Virus record (IMG/VR): IMGVR_UViG_3300042484_000872
Span: 48,338-112,337 of that record
Source of the DNA: a virus
Lineage: Duplodnaviria > Heunggongvirae > Uroviricota > Caudoviricetes
DNA length: 64,000 nucleotides
Strand: one strand, 5' to 3'
Positions 1,780 to 48,886 of this stretch are shown one piece after another. The first letter of the stretch is position 1. The number at the start of each line of letters is the position of its first letter. Below the pieces are notes generated by a model that saw nothing but the letters and a program-made list of their open reading frames with translations, did not search any database and was not told where the DNA came from. Position numbers and translations under genes: made by a program.

Positions 1780-2751
1780 TTAATTGTTACGTCTTCTACC
1801 AGCTCTATTAGTGCGGTTAGGAAGTTCATACATATTAAATCTATTAAGATCATTCTTAATCCTTCTTTGCTTCTCCCAAGGAGTTTGTTTCTTTATCTCA
1901 ATACTAGCCATGATGAAAGCCTCTTCATAAGCTTGTTTATGATACATCAACTTCTGTTGTAACTGATTAAATGTTTCATCATTAGTTTGGTTAGTAAGCA
2001 TTTCAAATATCTTAAACTTAAGGAATGCTTCTACATATTCTCTTATACGATAATTATCAGGAATTAATTGATTTCCTATCTCATCATACTCTGTAGCATA
2101 AAATATTAAATGTACTACACCATTTCTGAAATTAGTTACAAACTTATTATCTCGTATATCAAATGAATCATAACTAGCAGAGCCAGGAGTGAATTCATGA
2201 ATAGGTGGAGCTTCTGAATAGAATTCCCAATTGTTTGTATATTCCACTCCACAGTTTTGTCTTGCAGAGATGTTTCCAGGCTTAAGTAAATAGTTATGAG
2301 CAAATCCTCTAGTTACACTATTATTTGTCTTATACACTGTTTGTATTAACTCAGGCATACAAGAACCATCACATCCAACATTTCCACAACAAGGACTAGG
2401 AATAGCACAATCAGTAGTGATAGGAGATACCTGAATAGTAGTTGCAGTGGCTGCTTGTGAATAAAATGAATTAGCTGATTGATATGGATATCCAGATACT
2501 TGTGTACTCATCCAAGCTTCTCTAACAGCATAAAAGTTATCAGGAAGTCTAGCTTGAAAATCTTCAATATAAAGAATCTCATCAGTAATTACATAAGTAG
2601 TTCTTCCTAACTTCTTTAGAGCTTTATCTAAATACGTAGGAAATAAAAGATCATCTACAGCACCTGTATCAAAATAAGACTTTAATTCTTCTTTAACAGT
2701 TGAGTAGACAGGTTCTGGACTTATAAAAGCATATTTATAATAGTAGCTCAT
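1780..2751 (-). CDS. hypothetical protein (structural/morphogenesis module)
   Basis: 323-aa ORF tightly packed in the minus-strand operon; no recognisable motif. Confidence 0.55.
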   Translation of the reverse strand: MSYYYKYAFISPEPVYSTVKEELKSYFDTGAVDDLLFPTYLDKALKKLGRTTYVITDEILYIEDFQARLPDNFYAVREAWMSTQVSGYPYQSANSFYSQAATATTIQVSPITTDCAIPSPCCGNVGCDGSCMPELIQTVYKTNNSVTRGFAHNYLLKPGNISARQNCGVEYTNNWEFYSEAPPIHEFTPGSASYDSFDIRDNKFVTNFRNGVVHLIFYATEYDEIGNQLIPDNYRIREYVEAFLKFKIFEMLTNQTNDETFNQLQQKLMYHKQAYEEAFIMASIEIKKQTPWEKQRRIKNDLNRFNMYELPNRTNRAGRRRNN

Positions 2752-2757
2752 AATTAT

Positions 2758-3237
2758 TTAATGTTTCCATTCATGGTATAGGTGTTGATACTTATCGTTG
2801 GTCTTTAAGTAATGTGATAAAAGTCTTGAGGTTAACCTAGAAGGTTTGAAATACCAAAGATCAGAATTCTTAAATCTTGCTGATTGCTTAAACCACATCC
2901 AACCAAAAAAATAACCTTCCGTATGATAATTAAAGTTATAAATAACTTTTCCTTTCTCTTTAGTTTTCTGCCAATCAATTGGTAAGTTGACAAACTCTTT
3001 ACCATCTATGTTATTTTTTAATCTTCTTCTTTTCTTTTTATTGATAGAGAATTCTCCAAAACCATATGGAAGCTTTGCTTTATCACCAGTCTCTAAAATA
3101 TATTCTTTAAATGATTCATTGTAGGTGTATAATATATTCCTCCACTCATCAAAAGTTAATTTTATAGTTGAGTTTTTTTTGCAAAACTGATTATAGTTAT
3201 CTTTGCTAGAGCTTCTCCAATCAATCTTTGTCCTCAT
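2758..3237 (-). CDS. hypothetical protein
   Basis: 159-aa ORF, operon context, start/stop abut neighbours. Confidence 0.5.
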   Translation of the reverse strand: MRTKIDWRSSSKDNYNQFCKKNSTIKLTFDEWRNILYTYNESFKEYILETGDKAKLPYGFGEFSINKKKRRRLKNNIDGKEFVNLPIDWQKTKEKGKVIYNFNYHTEGYFFGWMWFKQSARFKNSDLWYFKPSRLTSRLLSHYLKTNDKYQHLYHEWKH

Positions 3238-3965
3238 TAATTAGTTGGTTTTGAGTTAGGTGCTTGACCATCTATTCCTTCTGCACTAATGTCTGATTTC
3301 AAATTAAAATAAGTAGATAATAGTTTTTGTGAGGTAAGTTGTAACACTTGTTGTTCTAAGTATCCAGGAAGAGCAAATTCTTTATCTAAAGGATTCTTAC
3401 ATATCTCATCATTGGTGTATTGTGGAGATCCACATCCACATTCAGGATACATAATGTCATTAGTTACATCTTCTTCGAAGAATGCTACAAATCTAATTGC
3501 TTTAAGTAAAGGATTGTTCACATATAAATATCCATTAGTAATCCAGAAGTATTCTTCTTTTTTAATTACAGGAAGTTTAAGTAAGTTTAAATATCTATTA
3601 ATAGAGATTTCTTTTAACTTCTTCCCTTTACCACTCATGGCATTAATAGAATAAACTCCTTGAATAACATATTGGTAATTACCTTCTGATATACGTGGGA
3701 GTTTAAATTTAGTTCTAGCTATAGAACAAGGATCTACGTAGTTACAACATTCAGAAATAGATACCTCTATCATCTCTAGACAAGGGATAGTGGTAAATAA
3801 TGTATCAGTAGCCCAAAGCTTTCTAAGATTGGTTTCTCTCTTGATTAATAACAAGGAGTTGTTTCTTATCTCAGAAGCAATTGCTCTATCTGTAATAAGA
3901 CTATCTGTAGAAAGTATCTTGTGGACACTTCTAACATCTGATACTAATTTTCTTAATGTTGCCAT
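3237..3965 (-). CDS. hypothetical protein
   Basis: 242-aa ORF, 1-nt overlap with the downstream gene (translational coupling). Confidence 0.5.
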   Translation of the reverse strand: MATLRKLVSDVRSVHKILSTDSLITDRAIASEIRNNSLLLIKRETNLRKLWATDTLFTTIPCLEMIEVSISECCNYVDPCSIARTKFKLPRISEGNYQYVIQGVYSINAMSGKGKKLKEISINRYLNLLKLPVIKKEEYFWITNGYLYVNNPLLKAIRFVAFFEEDVTNDIMYPECGCGSPQYTNDEICKNPLDKEFALPGYLEQQVLQLTSQKLLSTYFNLKSDISAEGIDGQAPNSKPTN

Positions 3966-3967
3966 AA

Positions 3968-5200
3968 TTATATTCGGGTTTCGAACTCTGCTATTTTACC
4001 TAGCTTACTGTCATAAACTAGAGCAAGAGCTGCACGTACTGAGTGTACGAAGTTATTATCTAAGTGCCATCTATCAGTTCCTGAAAGACTAGGCATTTGT
4101 TGTATTCTTACACCTTTGACTTCTTTAGCCATATAGTGATGTTTATCTCCTGTGTGTATCTCTCTGTATTTAGCATTACCAAAGAAATGACTATATTCAG
4201 GATGTGTAGCAAACAATAAAGGAAGATCATCTAATTTACAATTACCATGGTGCCATCCAATAAATGTATTACCTAACACTTTAGCTTTGATAACTGAATG
4301 TTCTCTGATAAAATCTACATCCATAGCATCTTGAAAATATACATCTAATGCATGTGCTAAGTAGAAAGATTTAGTTCTATCATGATTACCCTGTACAAGT
4401 ACAACAGTTACATCACTAGCATACTGTCTCAGCATATTGATTGTATCTACAAGAACAGAGAATCCTAATTCATACTCTGAATGGTAATCCATTATAGTAT
4501 CTTGTGGTGTACCCTGTGTAGTTTGATGTTGGTAGTTATCAGTATGGAAGAAATCATTTGATATAGGAAGTACAACAGTGTTTATGTTGTAATTAGCTTT
4601 CACTTTACAGATCAAAGATTGAGCCACATTGAAATATCTTAAGGCTCTTGCTTTTGGATCATTGTCACCATCTACACATCTTTTAGCTAAATGGAAATCA
4701 GATAAAGATATTTCTACGTCTACATAATCTTTATCAGTAGTACGATCTTCTTTAATGATTGATACATTAGTTGGTTTGTAGTTTTCTAAAAACTTAGCAA
4801 AGTCTTCAGGAGAATAATCTTGTGGTTGTTTTCTTTTACTAAAGACTGAGGAAGTAAAACTTCCACTTGGTAACATCTTAGACCAATAATTGGTAATGAC
4901 GTATTTATCTAGGTTTATCTTATGTAGCTTAGCTAACTCAAGATCATCTTTAGGTTCAAATGCACTAGTGACAGTACTTTCTATTGTTCCTTTCTCAACA
5001 TTCACTTTTCTAGATTCTTCCATGAATTTAGTAGCAATTCCTACAAGCACATCATCAACATCATCTTTTTCTCTCAGCTCTTTTAGAAGATCATTCACTT
5101 CAAATTCACTTATTCCTAGTTTTTCTGCGTAGAACTTTTTACTTTTCTTTTGCCTTAATAATTCTTCTAATCTATGTAACAAGCTTTGATTTTCAGACAT
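3968..5200 (-). CDS. calcineurin-like metallophosphoesterase
   Basis: VVLVQGNHD (GNHD motif), GWHHGN and HTGDKHH motifs typical of the metallophosphatase fold. Confidence 0.5.
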   Translation of the reverse strand: MSENQSLLHRLEELLRQKKSKKFYAEKLGISEFEVNDLLKELREKDDVDDVLVGIATKFMEESRKVNVEKGTIESTVTSAFEPKDDLELAKLHKINLDKYVITNYWSKMLPSGSFTSSVFSKRKQPQDYSPEDFAKFLENYKPTNVSIIKEDRTTDKDYVDVEISLSDFHLAKRCVDGDNDPKARALRYFNVAQSLICKVKANYNINTVVLPISNDFFHTDNYQHQTTQGTPQDTIMDYHSEYELGFSVLVDTINMLRQYASDVTVVLVQGNHDRTKSFYLAHALDVYFQDAMDVDFIREHSVIKAKVLGNTFIGWHHGNCKLDDLPLLFATHPEYSHFFGNAKYREIHTGDKHHYMAKEVKGVRIQQMPSLSGTDRWHLDNNFVHSVRAALALVYDSKLGKIAEFETRI

Positions 5201-23523: not shown

Positions 23524-24102
23524 CTATTTATATCTAATATTAAACTTTTTACTTTTATTAACACCTCTACAATTTGATGATATATTACTTTGAGATACAT
23601 TTAAAAACTCTGCAGCTTTTAATGATGATTCAAACTCTTGTATTATATTATTACTATCATCTAACAAAAGTACAATTTTTTGTTTAGTTAAACCTAATTT
23701 TTTATTATGTTCACTACTTCTAATTACAGTTCTTCCTTTTAATGAGTTAGCTATTTTTAATCTAGTTTCTTTTTTAACTTCCCTTCCTAAACAATTTCCT
23801 GCAACTGGAGTAGCATTATACCCACTGCTATATGAGTTATATTTATCTATATAATACTGTTCTTGTAAAAGAATGTTTTCATTACTGCATGTTTCTACTA
23901 TTTCAAAAATAAAACTATCTTCTCCGTATTTATTCCAAGCTCTTTGTAACTTAATTGAATGATGTTTATTCTTTTTAAGATTAGTTATATGACATCTTTT
24001 TCGTTTAGTTAATCCATGAATAGATGATCCTATATATACTTTATCTGTAGATATATTTTTTATCATGTAAATAACTCCTTCATATATCTGACTTAGGCTC
24101 AT
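23524..24102 (-). CDS. GIY-YIG homing endonuclease
   Basis: GVIYMIKN...KVYIGSS (GIY...YIG), conserved R/H/N downstream, C-terminal basic DNA-binding region. Confidence 0.65.
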   Translation of the reverse strand: MSLSQIYEGVIYMIKNISTDKVYIGSSIHGLTKRKRCHITNLKKNKHHSIKLQRAWNKYGEDSFIFEIVETCSNENILLQEQYYIDKYNSYSSGYNATPVAGNCLGREVKKETRLKIANSLKGRTVIRSSEHNKKLGLTKQKIVLLLDDSNNIIQEFESSLKAAEFLNVSQSNISSNCRGVNKSKKFNIRYK

Positions 24103-43326: not shown

Positions 43327-43423
43327 AAGAATTTTTTGAAGCAATTAACGAATACCCATGGACAACATTTTTTGTTTTCATAATGATATTATCTATTACT
43401 GGATCTTTAAGAAATAATAACAA

Positions 43424-44488
43424 ATGAGTTTTGAACTATTAAATGCAGAAGTTAACAAAGGCCTAGGTGATTTCAATAGAGGTATACCAATGGGCTTTGA
43501 TAGGCTTACTAGATATGTAGGTATTCGTAAGGGAATGTATTATTTGATAGGTGGTAACACAGGTTCAGGTAAGACATCTTTTATTGATGATGCATTTGTT
43601 CTTAATCCTGTTGATTGGGCTATGTCCAAAGAAGGAATAGCTTCAGGTATAAAGGTGAAGGTGTGGTATAGGTCCATGGAGAGAAGTAGAACATACAAGA
43701 TGGCCAAATGGGTATCTCGTAAAATATTTCTAGACCAGGGTATAATTATTCCTGTAGGTAAATTACTTGGCTGGAATGAGAAGATGACTAAAGATGAGCA
43801 TGATCTATTTTTATATTATAAAGATTATGTAGAACAGCTCAGTGAGATAGTCACCATCATAGATGGTCCAGAGAATCCTGTAGGTATAGCAAAAGAACTT
43901 AAAGCTTATGCTGAAGAGAATGGTGAGATACAGCAATTGGACAAATGGAATAAAATATATGTTCCTAATGATCCAACACAAATTACCATGGTTGTAGTAG
44001 ATCACATTGGTCTATTAAAAACAACAACAGCTCAACCAACTAAAAAGGATGCTATTGATAAGATGTCTGATGAACTCAGATATGCTAGAGATTTCTATGG
44101 CTACAGTCCTGTAGTGGTAAGTCAGTTCAACAGAAGCATTTCTAATCCATCTAGGATAAAGAATGGTGATGTAGAACCTCAGTTAGAAGATTTTGCAGAT
44201 AGCTCAAGCACACAGAATGATGCTGATGTAGTTATGGCCTTATTTGATCCTATGAGATATAAAGTGGCAGATCCTAGTGGATATGACCTAGATAAATTAA
44301 AAGATCAATTTGGTGCTAAGTATTTCAGAAGTGTAAGACTAATCAAGAATTCATACGGTGAAGATGATGTGAGAATTGGACTAGCATTCCTAGGTGAACT
44401 TGGTTTATTCAAGGAGCTACCTAGAAAGAAAGATATCACAGAAGCAGATTATGAATCAATTACAAATAAGAGTTTCTTTCTTAGATAA
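43424..44488 (+). CDS. DnaB-family (SF4) replicative helicase, C-terminal RecA-like domain only
   Basis: H1 GGNTGSGKTSFIDDAFVLN, H2 VVVDHIGLL, H3 VVVSQFNRS, H4 QNDADVVMALFD. Lacks the DnaB N-terminal domain (354 aa). Confidence 0.65.
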   Translation: MSFELLNAEVNKGLGDFNRGIPMGFDRLTRYVGIRKGMYYLIGGNTGSGKTSFIDDAFVLNPVDWAMSKEGIASGIKVKVWYRSMERSRTYKMAKWVSRKIFLDQGIIIPVGKLLGWNEKMTKDEHDLFLYYKDYVEQLSEIVTIIDGPENPVGIAKELKAYAEENGEIQQLDKWNKIYVPNDPTQITMVVVDHIGLLKTTTAQPTKKDAIDKMSDELRYARDFYGYSPVVVSQFNRSISNPSRIKNGDVEPQLEDFADSSSTQNDADVVMALFDPMRYKVADPSGYDLDKLKDQFGAKYFRSVRLIKNSYGEDDVRIGLAFLGELGLFKELPRKKDITEADYESITNKSFFLR

Positions 44489-44526
44489 ACAATTAAAATC
44501 AATTAAATCAATTAAAATCAATTAAA
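44489..44526. repeat. 4x tandem CAATTAAA(A)T array ending at the ATG of the ParB-like gene
   Basis: caattaaaat caattaaat caattaaaat caattaaac ATG read directly. Confidence 0.7.
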
Positions 44527-44527
44527 C

Positions 44528-45211
44528 ATGAAAACAACAAATTATTCAAAATTCCTATTCTCTAAAGAAAACAGAGAAATTAAAACAAAAACAGTCTTAG
44601 CAATTAAAGACTCAATGACTAAATTTGGATTTATTCCAGGTAGACCAGTATTAATTACAAAAGAATGGGTGATCATTGATGGTCAACACAGATTCTTAGC
44701 AGCTAAAGAACTTGGTATCTCAGTAGAGTTTGAAATTGTAGAAGGAAATTACATTGACAAAATGATTCTTTTAAATTCTACACAATCAAATTGGACTTTA
44801 GAAGATTACGTAAATTCATATGCACAACAGAATGTTGATTGCTACAGAAAGCTTTTGAAATTCAAAGATAAATATGAATTAAATCTTTCTTGCTCAATCG
44901 TTCTTTTATTTGGTTCAGGTGTAAAAACTGCTGATATTAGAAAAGGAGAAGTTCTTAAACAAAATCCTAATGCAGATCGAATGGCAGAATATGTTTTAAA
45001 CTGTAGTACAATATCTTACAACAAAGATCAAAAGTTTGTTAGAGCAATTGCAGCAGTGTATGATAAGTTAACAAGACCTCAATTGATAAAATTAAGATCA
45101 AGATTGATCGTTGTTCCAGCTTTATCTAATACAACTGACTTTGTTATAGCCTTTGAAAACATTATCAATAAAGGTAAAAGAGGAGATTACAAAGTGAAAT
45201 TAAGTAGATAA
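44528..45211 (+). CDS. ParB-like nuclease domain protein
   Basis: VIIDGQHRFLAAKELG matches the ParB/sulfiredoxin DGxHR motif. Confidence 0.6.
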   Translation: MKTTNYSKFLFSKENREIKTKTVLAIKDSMTKFGFIPGRPVLITKEWVIIDGQHRFLAAKELGISVEFEIVEGNYIDKMILLNSTQSNWTLEDYVNSYAQQNVDCYRKLLKFKDKYELNLSCSIVLLFGSGVKTADIRKGEVLKQNPNADRMAEYVLNCSTISYNKDQKFVRAIAAVYDKLTRPQLIKLRSRLIVVPALSNTTDFVIAFENIINKGKRGDYKVKLSR

Positions 45212-45213
45212 AT

Positions 45214-45315
45214 ATGAGTATAAGAGACCTCAGACAGAAAGAGTTTGCTGATGTATGGTTAAAAGAAAAGCATGGTATACTCAATCTATGTCCAAGGTTG
45301 TTAATAACTTTTTAA
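45214..45315 (+). pseudogene. diverged duplicate of the 5' end of the SF2 helicase gene (33 codons then stop)
   Basis: MSIRDLRQKEFADVWLKEKHGILNLCPRLLITF* aligns with the helicase N-terminus MSKSLRDIRQAEFAKAWIDKGKKGIIYACPRFGK (RDxRQxEFAxxWxxxxxGIxxxCPR). Confidence 0.5.
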
Positions 45316-45340
45316 ATTAAAATTTGTATATTAAAAAGGA

Positions 45341-46153
45341 ATGTTATATCTTTGTCATATGAAAATAGATATAGCCCTTAGAAAAGTGACTGGTATATAT
45401 AAAATTACCAACACTATAAACAATAAATCATATGTAGGAAGTTCTGTTGATGTATATCAAAGAGGATGTATGTATAAGCACTTAATCAAAAGAAAGAAGT
45501 TACATAACAAACATTTACAGTCAGCTGTAGAGAAGTATGGATATGATAATTTTACATTTGAAGTCTTAGATAAGTGTGAAGAAGGTACATCTGTTTTTGA
45601 TTTGCATCAATTAGAACAATCTTACATAAACAAAATTAATCCTGAGTACAATAAAAGAACTGTTGTAGACACAAATCATTTACTTTCACATTCTCAAGAA
45701 ACTAAAGATAAAATATCTAATAGTTTGAAAGAATCTTTTAAGAATGGTAGTAAAGTTATCAATCGTATACAAGAACATAATATAAAAGTTAGTCTATTTG
45801 ATCTATCTGGAAATCATATTCAAGATTTTCCAGGATTAGCTCATTGTGCTGATTTTGTAGGAGTGAAGTATCAGAGCGTAACTTTTGCTATAAACAGTGA
45901 AAGAAGAAGAGTTAAGAATTACATAGTGCTACGTACAGAGGAATCTAATTTGGTAAAAGATTTTCTAAACATACCTAAATTAAATTATGCTAAAAAAGTT
46001 ACAGTTCTAGATATAATTACAAATGAGACATTACAATTTATTAATTGTAAACTGTGTGCAGAATTTATAAATTGTAAACCAACAACTGTAAAAAAATGTT
46101 ATGAGAATGGTAAAATTTGGAAAAACAAATACAAAATAATAAACTATGAGTAA
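45341..46153 (+). CDS. GIY-YIG homing endonuclease
   Basis: GIYKITNTINNKSYVGSS...R...KHLQSAVEKYG...FEVL...E. Alternative start at 45359. Inserted between the helicase fragment and the intact helicase gene. Confidence 0.65.
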   Translation: MLYLCHMKIDIALRKVTGIYKITNTINNKSYVGSSVDVYQRGCMYKHLIKRKKLHNKHLQSAVEKYGYDNFTFEVLDKCEEGTSVFDLHQLEQSYINKINPEYNKRTVVDTNHLLSHSQETKDKISNSLKESFKNGSKVINRIQEHNIKVSLFDLSGNHIQDFPGLAHCADFVGVKYQSVTFAINSERRRVKNYIVLRTEESNLVKDFLNIPKLNYAKKVTVLDIITNETLQFINCKLCAEFINCKPTTVKKCYENGKIWKNKYKIINYE

Positions 46154-47261
46154 AAGTTTAAGAGATATTAGACAAGCAGAATTTGCAAAAGCTTGGATAG
46201 ATAAAGGAAAGAAGGGTATAATTTACGCTTGTCCAAGGTTTGGCAAGATAAGAACTAGTATATTAATATTAAAACAACTTCCTAAAAAAAGTCTTAGTTA
46301 TACGAATGCAACAGTTTATCCTTCAGTATTGATTGCTTACCCAGATAATAAGATTAAAGAATCTTGGCAATCTGATTTTGATGATCTTGGATATGATGAT
46401 AGCAATGTCACATACACAACACATTTATCATTAAAGAAGTTAGTAGACAATGAGTATGATATTATTATTATAGATGAGATACATCTACTGAGTGAAGCTC
46501 AGATAGAAGCATGTCAAGATCTATTTAGTAACAATGCTTGTATACTAGGTCTCACTGGTACATTAGCCAGTGATACAGAAAGAACTCTCGAAGAGGAACT
46601 TGATTTACATGTTGTAGCTCACTATCCAATTGAAAAAGCGATTGAAGAAGGTGTTATTGTAGATTATGAGATACATGTTATTAAAGTGCCCCTTGACAAT
46701 CTTGTACACAATGATTATAAAGGAAAACTTAAAACAGAGAAGAAACACTATGATGGATTATCTTGGGTAATCAATAAACTTCAGAATAGTGGATCAGACA
46801 CTATGTTCATGCGTCTTGCAAGAATGAGACTTATTCAATCATCTTTAGCTAAAACTAATGCTACGAAAAAGCTATTAGCTAAACATAAAGATGAGAGAGT
46901 GTTAGTATTCTGTGGCACCACTGCTGTAGCAGATAGTCTTGGTATTCCTTCCTATCATAATAAGTCTAAAGAAAAGAGTATCTTTGAAGACTTTGCTGAA
47001 GGAGAAGGTAATCACCTAGCTGTTGTAAAGATTGGTAATACAGGAGTTACATATAAGCCTCTAGACAAAGTGATTATTAATTATTTCGATAGTAATGCAG
47101 AGAATCTCGCACAAAAAATAAATCGATGTATGGCTATGGAATATAACACTCCTGATAAGAAAGCCCACATATACATAGTGAGTTCTAATGAACCTGTAGA
47201 ATTGAAATGGTTACAGAAAGCTTTAGAATTCTTCGATAAAACCAAAATAAAATACATATAA
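46146..47261 (+). CDS. SF2 DExH-type helicase/ATPase
   Basis: Motif I-like ACPRFGKIRT, motif II IIIDEIH, motif III LTGTLASD. Confidence 0.5.
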   Translation: MSKSLRDIRQAEFAKAWIDKGKKGIIYACPRFGKIRTSILILKQLPKKSLSYTNATVYPSVLIAYPDNKIKESWQSDFDDLGYDDSNVTYTTHLSLKKLVDNEYDIIIIDEIHLLSEAQIEACQDLFSNNACILGLTGTLASDTERTLEEELDLHVVAHYPIEKAIEEGVIVDYEIHVIKVPLDNLVHNDYKGKLKTEKKHYDGLSWVINKLQNSGSDTMFMRLARMRLIQSSLAKTNATKKLLAKHKDERVLVFCGTTAVADSLGIPSYHNKSKEKSIFEDFAEGEGNHLAVVKIGNTGVTYKPLDKVIINYFDSNAENLAQKINRCMAMEYNTPDKKAHIYIVSSNEPVELKWLQKALEFFDKTKIKYI

Positions 47262-47325
47262 CACTTGATTTTATTAAATATTATTCGTATATTTATAGAA
47301 TAAATTAACTAAATAAATTAAAACA

Positions 47326-48000
47326 ATGGCAAGTAAATTAGTTGGGATTGTTGGTGCAACTGGTACTGGAAAGAGTACAGCAATTAAGCACCTAAATCCA
47401 GAAGAAACGTACATTATCAATGTTGCAAAGAAAGAGCTTCCTTTCAAGGGAAGTGAAAAGCTTTACAATGCTGAAAACAAAAATTACAAGGAAATTGAAG
47501 ATGCAAATGAAATATCTCGTCAGTTGAGAATTCTTTCAGACAAAGCTCCTCATATTAAGAACATCATCATTGAAGACTCTAATTACATTATGGGATTCAA
47601 TATGGTGGCTAAAGCTACAGAAGTAGGATTTACCAAGTTTAGTATTATGGCTAAAGACATGGTGGATCTATTTAGAACTGCTAGACAATTGAGAGAAGAC
47701 ATCACTGTATTCTATCTTACACATCCAGAAGAAGTGATGGATGGTCAAGATGTAATAGGATATAAAATCAAAACTGCAGGTAAGCTTATTGATAACCAAG
47801 TGTTATTAGAAGGATTGCTAACTGTATGTCTCTACACTCTTGTAGAAGAGAACAAAGATGGAACAGCTAATTATCAATTTGTAACTAATCGTTATAGAAA
47901 GTATCCAGCTAAGAGTCCTGATGGAATGTTCCAAGAATTAAAAATACCAAATAACCTGCAAATAGTAGCAGAAAGTTTAACAGATTATTATAACGCTTAA
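47326..48000 (+). CDS. P-loop NTPase
   Basis: Walker A GIVGATGTGKST near the N-terminus; 224 aa. Confidence 0.5.
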   Translation: MASKLVGIVGATGTGKSTAIKHLNPEETYIINVAKKELPFKGSEKLYNAENKNYKEIEDANEISRQLRILSDKAPHIKNIIIEDSNYIMGFNMVAKATEVGFTKFSIMAKDMVDLFRTARQLREDITVFYLTHPEEVMDGQDVIGYKIKTAGKLIDNQVLLEGLLTVCLYTLVEENKDGTANYQFVTNRYRKYPAKSPDGMFQELKIPNNLQIVAESLTDYYNA

Positions 48001-48013
48001 TTAAATAGAAATT

Positions 48014-48886
48014 ATGAGTAGTATCGGAGGAAAGAAAAGAGAGAACACAGGAAGTGGTGATTCAGTAAAGAAAGTAGGATTGTTCGAAGCAAACATTATT
48101 GCTATCAATCCAACAATTGAAGAGTATAAAGACAAGCTTGGTATTGATCTTAAAGAAGACAGCAAAGCTGCTGAGTATTTAGGTGAGACTAAAGATGGGA
48201 ACAGTTATGTTCGTTTAGATTTTTGGTTACAGAAAGTTAATACTACAGATAATTATAAAGTTAGCTTTTTCTTAGAAGATAAAGAACGTGAGAACAAAGA
48301 TGGAACTAAGAAACAATATATCAATTCTATTGGTATGTGTTCTTGGGCAGGAGATGAAAATGATCTAGCTGAATGGTTCACAAAAGGAAGAGATTTCAGA
48401 GTGGCGTATACAGGAGAAGAAGATCTTTACAACTTCATGAGAACATGGTTAGCTGATCTTGATTATCGTGATGCAGAAACTGTTCTACAATTAGAATGGA
48501 AGAAGTTGATGAGAGGTAATATAAAAGACATTAAAGACCAAATTGGTGGAGAATGGGCTAAATCTGTTATTGCTCTTGCTACTGTTATTGTTAAAGAAAG
48601 AGATGGAGATTCTAAAGAGTATCAAGGTATCTATAATAAAGCCTTCTTAGGTGGATATGCATTGAAACAATTTAGACTTGTTGATTATGGAGACAGAAGA
48701 GTACAAGAGGGTCTTAAAAACAAGAAACCAAAAGATTTGAAAGCACACGAGAAATTCGTAGTGAATGTTATAGGTGAATATGGTTGTAAAGACTATTATA
48801 CACTAAAGGACCTACAGGATTATAATGCAGATGACAATTTAGTTGCTTCTGATGCATATATTTCTGAAGATGGTGACGATTATTAA
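48014..48886 (+). CDS. hypothetical protein with acidic C-terminal tail (SSB-like?)
   Basis: Ends SEDGDDY, i.e. acidic tail with a terminal aromatic as in phage ssDNA-binding proteins; sits between ATPase and primase genes. Weak. Confidence 0.3.
   Translation: MSSIGGKKRENTGSGDSVKKVGLFEANIIAINPTIEEYKDKLGIDLKEDSKAAEYLGETKDGNSYVRLDFWLQKVNTTDNYKVSFFLEDKERENKDGTKKQYINSIGMCSWAGDENDLAEWFTKGRDFRVAYTGEEDLYNFMRTWLADLDYRDAETVLQLEWKKLMRGNIKDIKDQIGGEWAKSVIALATVIVKERDGDSKEYQGIYNKAFLGGYALKQFRLVDYGDRRVQEGLKNKKPKDLKAHEKFVVNVIGEYGCKDYYTLKDLQDYNADDNLVASDAYISEDGDDY

Follow-up and report, generated by a model that had tools for sequence, protein, structure and literature searches.

How can a homing endonuclease gene sit inside the coding sequence of a phage gene without destroying it, and why should the beginning of that gene then be present twice? 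Both questions are raised by a 64,000-nucleotide stretch of a Caudoviricetes genome (IMG/VR record IMGVR_UViG_3300042484_000872, positions 48,338 to 112,337; hereafter the window, numbered from its first letter). Here a ParB-like gene is followed by a mini-ORF (open reading frame) of 33 codons, a GIY-YIG homing endonuclease gene and an SF2 helicase gene whose first codons resemble the mini-ORF. As an account of structure and evolution, we consider it very probable that a GIY-YIG cassette homed into the helicase coding sequence and brought a replacement gene start with it. Relatives from IMG/VR, referred to by L numbers, provide most of the comparisons below.

A helicase gene start present twice

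Over 28 aligned positions, 15 residues of the mini-ORF are identical to their counterparts in helicase residues 4-31. The BLOSUM62 local score of 81 compares with 23.9±3.7 in 5000 shuffles, none of which reaches it (maximum 46; z=15). An earlier sequence-only reading had described the mini-ORF, a GIY-YIG ORF (45341-46153) and the helicase ORF, all of which are present, and had proposed a residue-by-residue alignment at ~50% identity, which holds up against these shuffled controls. At the DNA level, an nhmmer profile of 66 helicase 5' ends matches 45214-45299 (E=1e-19, profile positions 1-89). The similarity of the two copies ends in an exact shared 11-mer, TGTCCAAGGTT, past which the first copy goes on with GTTAATAAC and the second with TGGCAAGATAAG (Phe-Gly-Lys). 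Homology therefore breaks between the Arg28 and Phe29 codons (...CPR/FGKIRTS; a slash marks the break here and below), and the mini-ORF does stop, as had been noted, where the Walker-A region would begin. The extent given for the duplicate needs correction: the homology is real, but it covers 28 codons rather than ~33 and ends at 45299, leaving the last five codons (LLITF, then the stop) outside.

Endonuclease-free siblings identify the resident copy

The endonuclease is present in the window, L001 and L007 and absent from L002, L003-L006 and L008. In L003-L006 and L008, ParB is followed 2 nt on by the helicase, and the first 28 helicase residues are those of the mini-ORF. The window has the same 2-nt spacing between the ParB-like gene and the mini-ORF, with a further 43 nt between the mini-ORF and the nuclease ATG at 45359. 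Its ParB protein shares 99-100% amino acid identity with those of L003-L006 and L008, and 82% with those of the endonuclease-carrying L001 and L007. Across 44503-45299, window DNA differs from L003 at four of 797 positions (99.5% identity), and within the mini-ORF part, 45214-45299, it differs from the L003 helicase start at none of 86. The alignment with L003 ends exactly at 45299; it picks up again in the second copy, from 46155, where identity in successive 60-nt windows is 65%, 78% and 28%, the last of these holding a 33-nt indel. The final difference falls at 46346 and is followed by 242 identical bases, to 46588. Nucleotides 45300-45315 lack a counterpart in the endonuclease-free siblings and are identical in L001 and L007; a 13-mer from this region, GTTAATAACTTTT, is also found in a decayed helicase remnant of L018.

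Since the match to L003 stops at 45299 and is exact again only after 46346, the window is an L003-like genome that has received a foreign tract at 45300-46346. Within its ~1.05 kb, this tract comprises the tail of the mini-ORF, the spacer, the nuclease gene and the first 67 helicase codons. It is thus the mini-ORF that represents the resident 5' end of the helicase gene, whereas the N-terminus now in use (MSKSLRDIRQAEFAKAWIDKGKKGIIYAC) arrived with the nuclease.

The sequence-only reading had offered two origins for the repeated gene start, and comparison with endonuclease-free relatives, which settles which copy is resident, separates them. Insertion of an endonuclease with a donor-derived flank is supported, the functional N-terminus being that flank. 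The other origin, a tandem duplication of the helicase 5' end in place, followed by divergence and the landing of an endonuclease gene between the copies, would also explain why the endonuclease gene has these 28 codons on both sides, in colinear copies. Yet the first copy is indistinguishable from the sibling, in flanks that are 99.5% identical, and the second, at 65-78% identity to the sibling, is identical to the carriers. Local divergence cannot yield such asymmetry; we therefore take in-situ duplication to be excluded, and leave it only a very small residual probability.

The tract as a mobile unit

Differences between the window and the other two carriers are dense up to 45250 and then number 1-4 as far as 46336 (L007) or 46585 (L001). 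The backgrounds are more diverged than the tract, as seen in the ParB proteins above and in the L007 helicase body, which is 90% identical. The left crossover lies within the 3' half of the remnant (45251-45299), and the remnant would therefore act as the left homology arm and the helicase body as the right one. Sporadic presence and absence at one locus, together with co-converted flanks, is the behavior of a free-standing homing endonuclease. The overlap of the nuclease stop with the helicase start, ATGAGTAA, is also found in L001, L007, L090, L091 and L183, and it persists as an 'MSKS' start in L188, where the endonuclease has decayed, and in L047 and L032, where an endonuclease is absent from this place. 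When contigs were scanned for exact matches to the endonuclease/helicase junction pattern, the four that emerged were all already known.

An assembly chimera of endonuclease-carrying and endonuclease-free strains deserves attention in metagenomic data, given that both allele types co-occur in similar environments and that 11-50 nt of identical sequence lie at the junction. The identical junction, however, recurs in three contigs with different flanks (window, L001 and L007), and analogous ones are found in L047, L183 and L099, so that an artifact of this kind is almost certainly not the explanation.

Past co-conversion has left a mosaic marker in the helicase, a 33-nt insertion (46266-46304 and homologues) encoding roughly SLSYTNATVYP: endonuclease-linked alleles have it, as do the endonuclease-free L002, L009 and L034, whereas siblings of the L003 type lack it. 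L002, whose helicase is of the cassette type from codon 29 onward, was considered as a product of precise endonuclease loss and rejected, as its codons 21-28 (AATTTTGAATTTGTGCCCACGC) match neither L001 copy. Judging from these codons, it is better read as a naive relative.

Gene identities at the locus

The domain assignments made earlier (GIY-YIG endonuclease, SF2 helicase and ParB-like) are backed by Pfam and PHROGs. In the nuclease, residues 18-104 score 30.2 bits with the GIY-YIG family (PF01541, E 5.6e-7; cut-off 22.6) and residues 218-253 score 26.4 bits with NUMOD1 (PF07453; cut-off 22.8), its C-terminal DNA-binding module; in PHROGs, the protein matches PHROG 314, 'homing endonuclease' (E 9e-23). 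The helicase contains ResIII (E 1.6e-7) and Helicase_C (E 3.7e-7) domains and matches PHROG 16, 'DNA helicase', over residues 10-342 (E 6e-20); a PDB sequence search with it gave no match below E 0.08. Among its motifs are PRFGKIRTS at residues 30-38 and DEIH at ~110. The core PR[FM]GK is common to the helicase homologues compared, and its position makes PRFGK the putative helicase motif I; the homologous site in L099 reads ATGVGKT. Among GenBank phages, blastn with 43400-48000 gave no match; the sole tblastn matches of the helicase, in Flavobacterium psychrophilum phages, were at 28% identity and too remote to be of use. The features are collected in Table 1.

Table 1. Features of the helicase locus in the window, remnant/cassette junctions, and probable gene-end remnants in other contigs
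Sequence	Feature	Position	Strand	Remarks
Window	ParB-like gene	44528-45211	+	Resident; part of left homology arm; PHROG 12305, 'ParB-like partition protein', E 1e-26
Window	Mini-ORF	45214-45315	+	33 aa, MSIRDLRQKEFADVWLKEKHGILNLCPRLLITF, then TAA stop at 45313-45315
Window	Resident helicase 5' end, orphaned	45214-45299	+	Start codon, codons 1-28 and 2 nt
Window	Mini-ORF tail past homology (LLITF and TAA), junction	45300-45315	+	First part of imported cassette
Window	Probable older decayed helicase-5' relic	45337-45358	+	AGGAATGTTATATCTTTGTCAT; directly before nuclease start
Window	GIY-YIG + NUMOD1 homing endonuclease gene	45359-46153	+	264 aa from ATG 45359; longest ORF from 45341
Window	Overlap of helicase ATG and nuclease stop	46146-46153	+	ATGAGTAA; 8 nt; read from sequence
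Window	Imported replacement 5' segment of helicase	46146-46346	+	Codons 1-67, including PRFGK P-loop-like motif
Window	SF2 helicase, intact hybrid	46146-47261	+	371 aa, start MSKSLRDIRQAEFAKAWIDKGKKGIIYACPRFGK; imported 5' part and resident body
Window, L001, L007	Junction			...CCAAGGTT/GTTAATAAC
L047	Junction			...CCAAGGT/AATTAAAAAC
L183	Junction			...CCTAGA/AAAAAAGTAAAA
L164	Probable N-terminal remnant	~2700-3850		MKKKIEDITIGTD
L166	Probable N-terminal remnant	~2630-3990		Downstream gene RuvC-like by eye from sequence alone
L173	Probable C-terminal remnant	~2700-3880		Upstream gene ThyX-like by eye from sequence alone

Outside this locus, the window has a second GIY-YIG-like ORF (23524-24102, minus strand, 192 aa), which is 35% identical to the nuclease studied here and 41% identical to a GIY-YIG+NUMOD3 gene downstream of the L007 helicase.

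Splicing, split proteins and a retained peptide

Endonucleases at conserved active-site codons are typical of both group I introns and inteins, and a break at a catalytic motif invites the idea that the mini-ORF is exon 1, or an N-extein, that is spliced to the helicase body. An Rfam search of 44400-47400, however, found no family even at E<=1, so no group I or group II intron was detected. The mini-ORF ends in a TAA stop, and the nuclease, encoded by its own ORF in a different frame, has GIY-YIG and NUMOD1 as its sole Pfam hits above cut-off, neither of them an intein or Hint domain. The downstream gene, moreover, has its own start and a complete N-terminus, aligning full length from residue 1 with more than 80 homologues, so that splicing would duplicate 28 residues. 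The probability of either kind of splicing is accordingly minute.

Complete alignment from residue 1 with uninterrupted homologues also argues against a gene in pieces, in which the 33-residue peptide and the downstream protein would form one enzyme, as in nrdA of phage Aeh1. Phage genes split by endonucleases are documented (mobE/nrdA, mobA/gene 60 and seg/gene 43; PMC2988022), but the older helicase remnants in L018, L090 and L091 decay by frameshift or deletion, so the peptide is not under long-term selection. We regard a two-piece helicase as highly improbable.

The fate of these remnants bears equally on whether the mini-ORF has been kept because it is useful, either as a leader ORF that regulates endonuclease expression from the helicase's own promoter and ribosome-binding context, or as a small peptide with an interfering role. 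Fresh remnants, in the window, L001, L007, L047 and L183, are indeed intact ORFs with native start context and a stop 0-5 codons past the break. Against such a role, identity to the sibling marks an event too recent for decay, and older remnants are frameshifted or truncated. Nor is there a significant RNA structure (the fold of 45285-45385 is no better than shuffles, z=-0.97) or a promoter or terminator signal (promoter-like sites are fewer than in shuffles, and terminators number zero). A retained function is unlikely.

A recurrent break site

The three distinct remnant/cassette junctions all fall just past the Arg codon and are no more than 2 nt apart (Table 1). In L047 (5149-6008), what comes after the remnant is not an endonuclease but three small ORFs (73, 95 and 78 aa) without a Pfam match above the curated threshold; the helicase start is again ATGAGTAAAAGT, and this cargo may have replaced an endonuclease. 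In L183, the remnant starts at the stop of another GIY-YIG gene and is followed by a 130-aa Cys-rich ORF and an endonuclease 94% identical to that of the window.

Selection on the nuclease and older remnants

Intact nuclease homologues are found in L183 (94% identity), L090 (91%) and L091 (83%), and dN/dS among the four alleles, at 83-94% amino acid identity, is 0.12-0.21; the nuclease is under purifying selection. In L188, it is reduced to its last ~58 codons, before an MSKS helicase. When viral contigs were scanned with the four aligned endonuclease proteins, only generic GIY-YIG genes of <=52% identity came up, the scan patterns being too general.

In L090 and L091, shorter, decayed helicase remnants stand directly before the nuclease start. 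They match helicase profile positions 1-82 with E-values of 1e-10 and 2e-6 in a small search, and 1e-7 and 3e-3 in a full search, and they run colinearly into AGGAAT[G/T][T/C]T[A/T]TATCTTTGTCAT and then the ATG. The window relic at 45337-45358 reads G-M-L-Y-L-C-H against G-I-L-N-L-C-P in the helicase and is not significant alone (nhmmer E 0.83); in L090 and L091, this sequence makes up the colinear end of the recognizable remnant. The 'MLYLCH' extension of the longest nuclease ORF (45341-45358) looks like an older, decayed G-I-L-N-L-C-P segment. The ORF that had been given as starting at 45341 does exist, but the nuclease itself probably starts at the ATG at 45359 (MKIDIA...), because the 83%-identical L091 homologue lacks an upstream ATG. 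Together, these loci record endonuclease gain, decay and loss.

Linked helicase alleles and other endonucleases

The residues before PR[FM]GK were compared in 86 contigs. LNLC is found in 68 of 80 helicases that are not linked to this GIY-YIG endonuclease and in none of the six that are (Fisher one-sided p=4e-5); counted by unique 36-nt sites, the figures are 45/55 and 0/4 (p=0.002). The linked helicases read IYAC, LMLA, INAC or LLLA, and codons 24-27 of the allele imported into the window encode IIYAC in place of the usual ILNLC.

A LAGLIDADG endonuclease (PF14528; PHROG 4645, E 2e-52) occupies the same position in L018-L022, L043, L044, L068 and L074. In L018-L022, L043 and L044, it is preceded by a decayed, frameshifted helicase remnant that extends to profile position 106, past the P-loop codons; in L068 and L074, only short, non-significant traces of a remnant precede it. 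The LAGLIDADG-linked helicases read PRMGKCR in eight of nine cases, and PRMGK occurs in none of the 71 helicases that lack a LAGLIDADG or GIY-YIG link. Each endonuclease family is thus associated with altered codons on its particular side of the break, as expected if the linked allele were resistant.

Several further observations concern the surroundings of the helicase. The LAGLIDADG gene, which has an N-terminal helix-turn-helix, lies directly upstream of the helicase at L018:741-1652 and likewise in L019, L021, L022, L043, L044, L068 and L074. The remnant of L018-L022, L043 and L044 and the L090 remnant, which stands before a GIY-YIG gene, have a peculiar internal deletion in common, a hint that they descend from one pseudogene or that one of the two endonucleases has taken the other's place. 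A third family at this spot, an HNH endonuclease (PHROG 374, E 9e-59), is directly upstream of the helicase in L015 and L024 (5330-6004 in each); the helicase there starts MKKS or MSKS, and no helicase remnant is visible before the HNH gene in either contig. A GIY-YIG+NUMOD3 gene is found directly downstream of the helicase stop at L007:7125-7640, with similar genes in L015, L034, L041, L057, L058, L060, L061 and L063, and is absent from this place in the window. The helicase gene has endonuclease landing sites on both sides.

A proposed course of events

The free-standing GIY-YIG cassette would have inserted between helicase codons 28 and 29 (...Cys-Pro-Arg/Phe-Gly-Lys...), just 5' of the P-loop-like motif, where it is removed by neither RNA nor protein splicing. 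Downstream of the nuclease gene, it brings its own start codon and the first ~31-67 helicase codons. With this imported ATG and N-terminal codons, a full-length hybrid helicase ORF is rebuilt, and the resident 28 codons are thereby left as an orphan mini-ORF. The nuclease is predicted to cut naive helicase alleles at or very near CCAAGG/TTTGG, after which the donor's helicase body would serve as template for repair of the right break end. The left end may, in founding events, have been joined illegitimately to donor DNA upstream of the nuclease gene, so that resident codons 1-28 stayed; in later transfers, the remnant would act as the left homology arm for ordinary double-strand-break-repair homing. 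The imported N-terminus would keep the helicase functional and is probably an uncut, cleavage-resistant 'rescue' allele. This cut site and the resistance of the imported allele, both read from sequence comparison, are somewhat more likely than not.

Several points weigh against this account. The cleavage site and the resistance of the imported allele are inferred, and GIY-YIG enzymes can cut away from their insertion site, I-TevI ~25 bp off and SegG in a neighboring gene (PMC2988022), so the junction need not equal the cut. The first junction requires illegitimate end joining, which is not the canonical homing route. Variant alleles (LLLA, IYAC and ILAC) also occur in 12 of the 80 contigs without this endonuclease; the contigs are phylogenetically non-independent, and the linkage of alleles could partly reflect ancestry rather than immunity. 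The intact mini-ORF has native start context, could be translated and may have a function. Finally, all of the sequences are metagenomic contigs, and none comes from a cultured host or phage.

The same layout elsewhere

A mirror image of the arrangement is found in L011 (1505-3595). Its helicase ends in a variant C-terminus (...KWLQSALSFFNPEKIKYI, then a stop) and is followed by a LAGLIDADG gene (2615-3541; PF14528, E 3e-11). Directly after that gene, at 3542-3595, is an orphan WLSKALEFFDENKIKYI with its stop, which corresponds to the typical last 17 helicase codons.

For a wider survey, upstream-encoded peptides were compared with downstream-encoded ones at 87 unrelated GIY-YIG loci, these loci being the generic GIY-YIG genes (<=52% identity) from the viral-contig scan. 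The window, as positive control, scored 87, and reversed-sequence controls scored <=60. L099, a 121-kb contig, scored 93. At 2094-4844, it has a ParB-like gene, a 29-aa ORF (MTREEIQKLALDATDKKRKCGLSLATG/GL, then a stop), a GIY-YIG gene 31% identical to the window nuclease, and an intact helicase (MTREKIQELALNATNNKKRCSLILATGVGKT...) whose start overlaps the nuclease stop. The remnant ends ...LATG/, just before the Walker-A GKT codons, and the helicase reads ...LATGVGKT. From this arrangement, we are confident in reading L099 as the same layout, again broken at motif I, in a much more remote phage. L164, L166 and L173 scored 56-59, at the edge of the reversed-control range, with matches positioned as the model predicts; they are probable further cases of gene-end remnants beside unrelated GIY-YIG genes, next to other genes (Table 1).

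Relation to known systems

The closest documented relatives of the window element are the mobile ORF elements (mORFs) of fungal mitochondria, in which LAGLIDADG or GIY-YIG ORFs are inserted in atp6, atp9, cox2 and nad3 together with a foreign C-terminal segment, as in Allomyces macrogynus atp6 and in Glomus sp. (PMC3630166). As in the window, a diverged version of the displaced coding terminus moves together with the endonuclease ORF, and the result is a hybrid host gene that still works. What remains of the native terminus, untranslated or orphaned, matches that of close relatives, whereas the inserted terminus clusters elsewhere. Whereas mORFs replace a C-terminus, often with the nuclease fused in frame, the window has a foreign N-terminal copy beside the native remnant, with its own start codon overlapping the stop of a nuclease that is a separate ORF; the C-terminal, in-frame form is not seen there. 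The host of mORFs is an organelle and that of the window element a phage, in which the C-terminal form does exist (L011).

The free-standing endonucleases SegF, SegG, SegB and MobE of phage T4 carry out intronless homing with co-conversion of flanking markers (PMC2988022). Like the window element, the T4 seg and mob systems have a free-standing GIY-YIG gene beside the target gene, presence/absence polymorphism, a donor co-conversion tract and a presumably resistant allele. The T4 genes, however, sit between intact genes or split one, whereas the window insertion lies inside coding sequence and gives a replacement terminus and an orphan remnant. No word starting with 'duplicat' appears in a 2010 review on the mobile DNA of T4 (PMC2988022).

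Genes in pieces, such as those with mobE in nrdA (Aeh1), mobA in T4 gene 39/60 and seg in gene 43 (Aeromonas phage 25) (PMC2988022), likewise have the endonuclease in a conserved, functionally critical part of a phage replication or nucleotide-metabolism gene. There, both halves are required and reassemble as polypeptides; in the window, the downstream ORF is complete and the upstream piece redundant. Endonucleases of group I introns and inteins, too, occupy a conserved active-site codon without killing the host gene and pass through a cycle of gain, decay and loss. Unlike them, the window element shows neither a ribozyme nor an in-frame splicing domain, and gene function is kept by replacement of the gene end at the DNA level.

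Synthetic 'home-and-rescue' homing drives place a nuclease in an essential gene together with a linked, recoded and cleavage-resistant copy of the disrupted segment. They are engineered, CRISPR-based, work in diploid eukaryotes and recode the 3' portion. The window element resembles them, provided that its natural imported allele is resistant as predicted.

The window presents an N-terminal, phage version of terminal replacement in which the start codon overlaps the nuclease stop. A literature search found no phage report of an N-terminal replacement cassette, subscription journals being outside its coverage.

Implications for phage homing endonucleases

The locus documents a free-standing homing endonuclease inside an essential phage gene without intron, intein or split protein, with exact boundaries and endonuclease-free controls. 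It also accounts for orphan mini-ORFs and mosaic N-termini that annotation pipelines would label as hypothetical genes or paralogues, predicts the nuclease target (CCAAGG/TTTGG, in the P-loop region) and the resistance codons, and presents a natural counterpart of engineered rescue-type gene drives. A broader proposal, for and against which we see equal weight, is that phage homing endonucleases routinely occupy essential coding sequence by a third way, besides introns and inteins, namely with a recoded, cleavage-resistant replacement terminus. In this phage group, GIY-YIG and LAGLIDADG elements would then compete for the helicase P-loop codons, the upstream position being taken by an HNH gene as well, and would leave nested orphaned gene starts and a family-specific resistance polymorphism on each element's own side of the break. 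Since the small survey contained further cases, one of them confident (L099) and three probable (L164, L166 and L173), this strategy may be common and under-described in phages.

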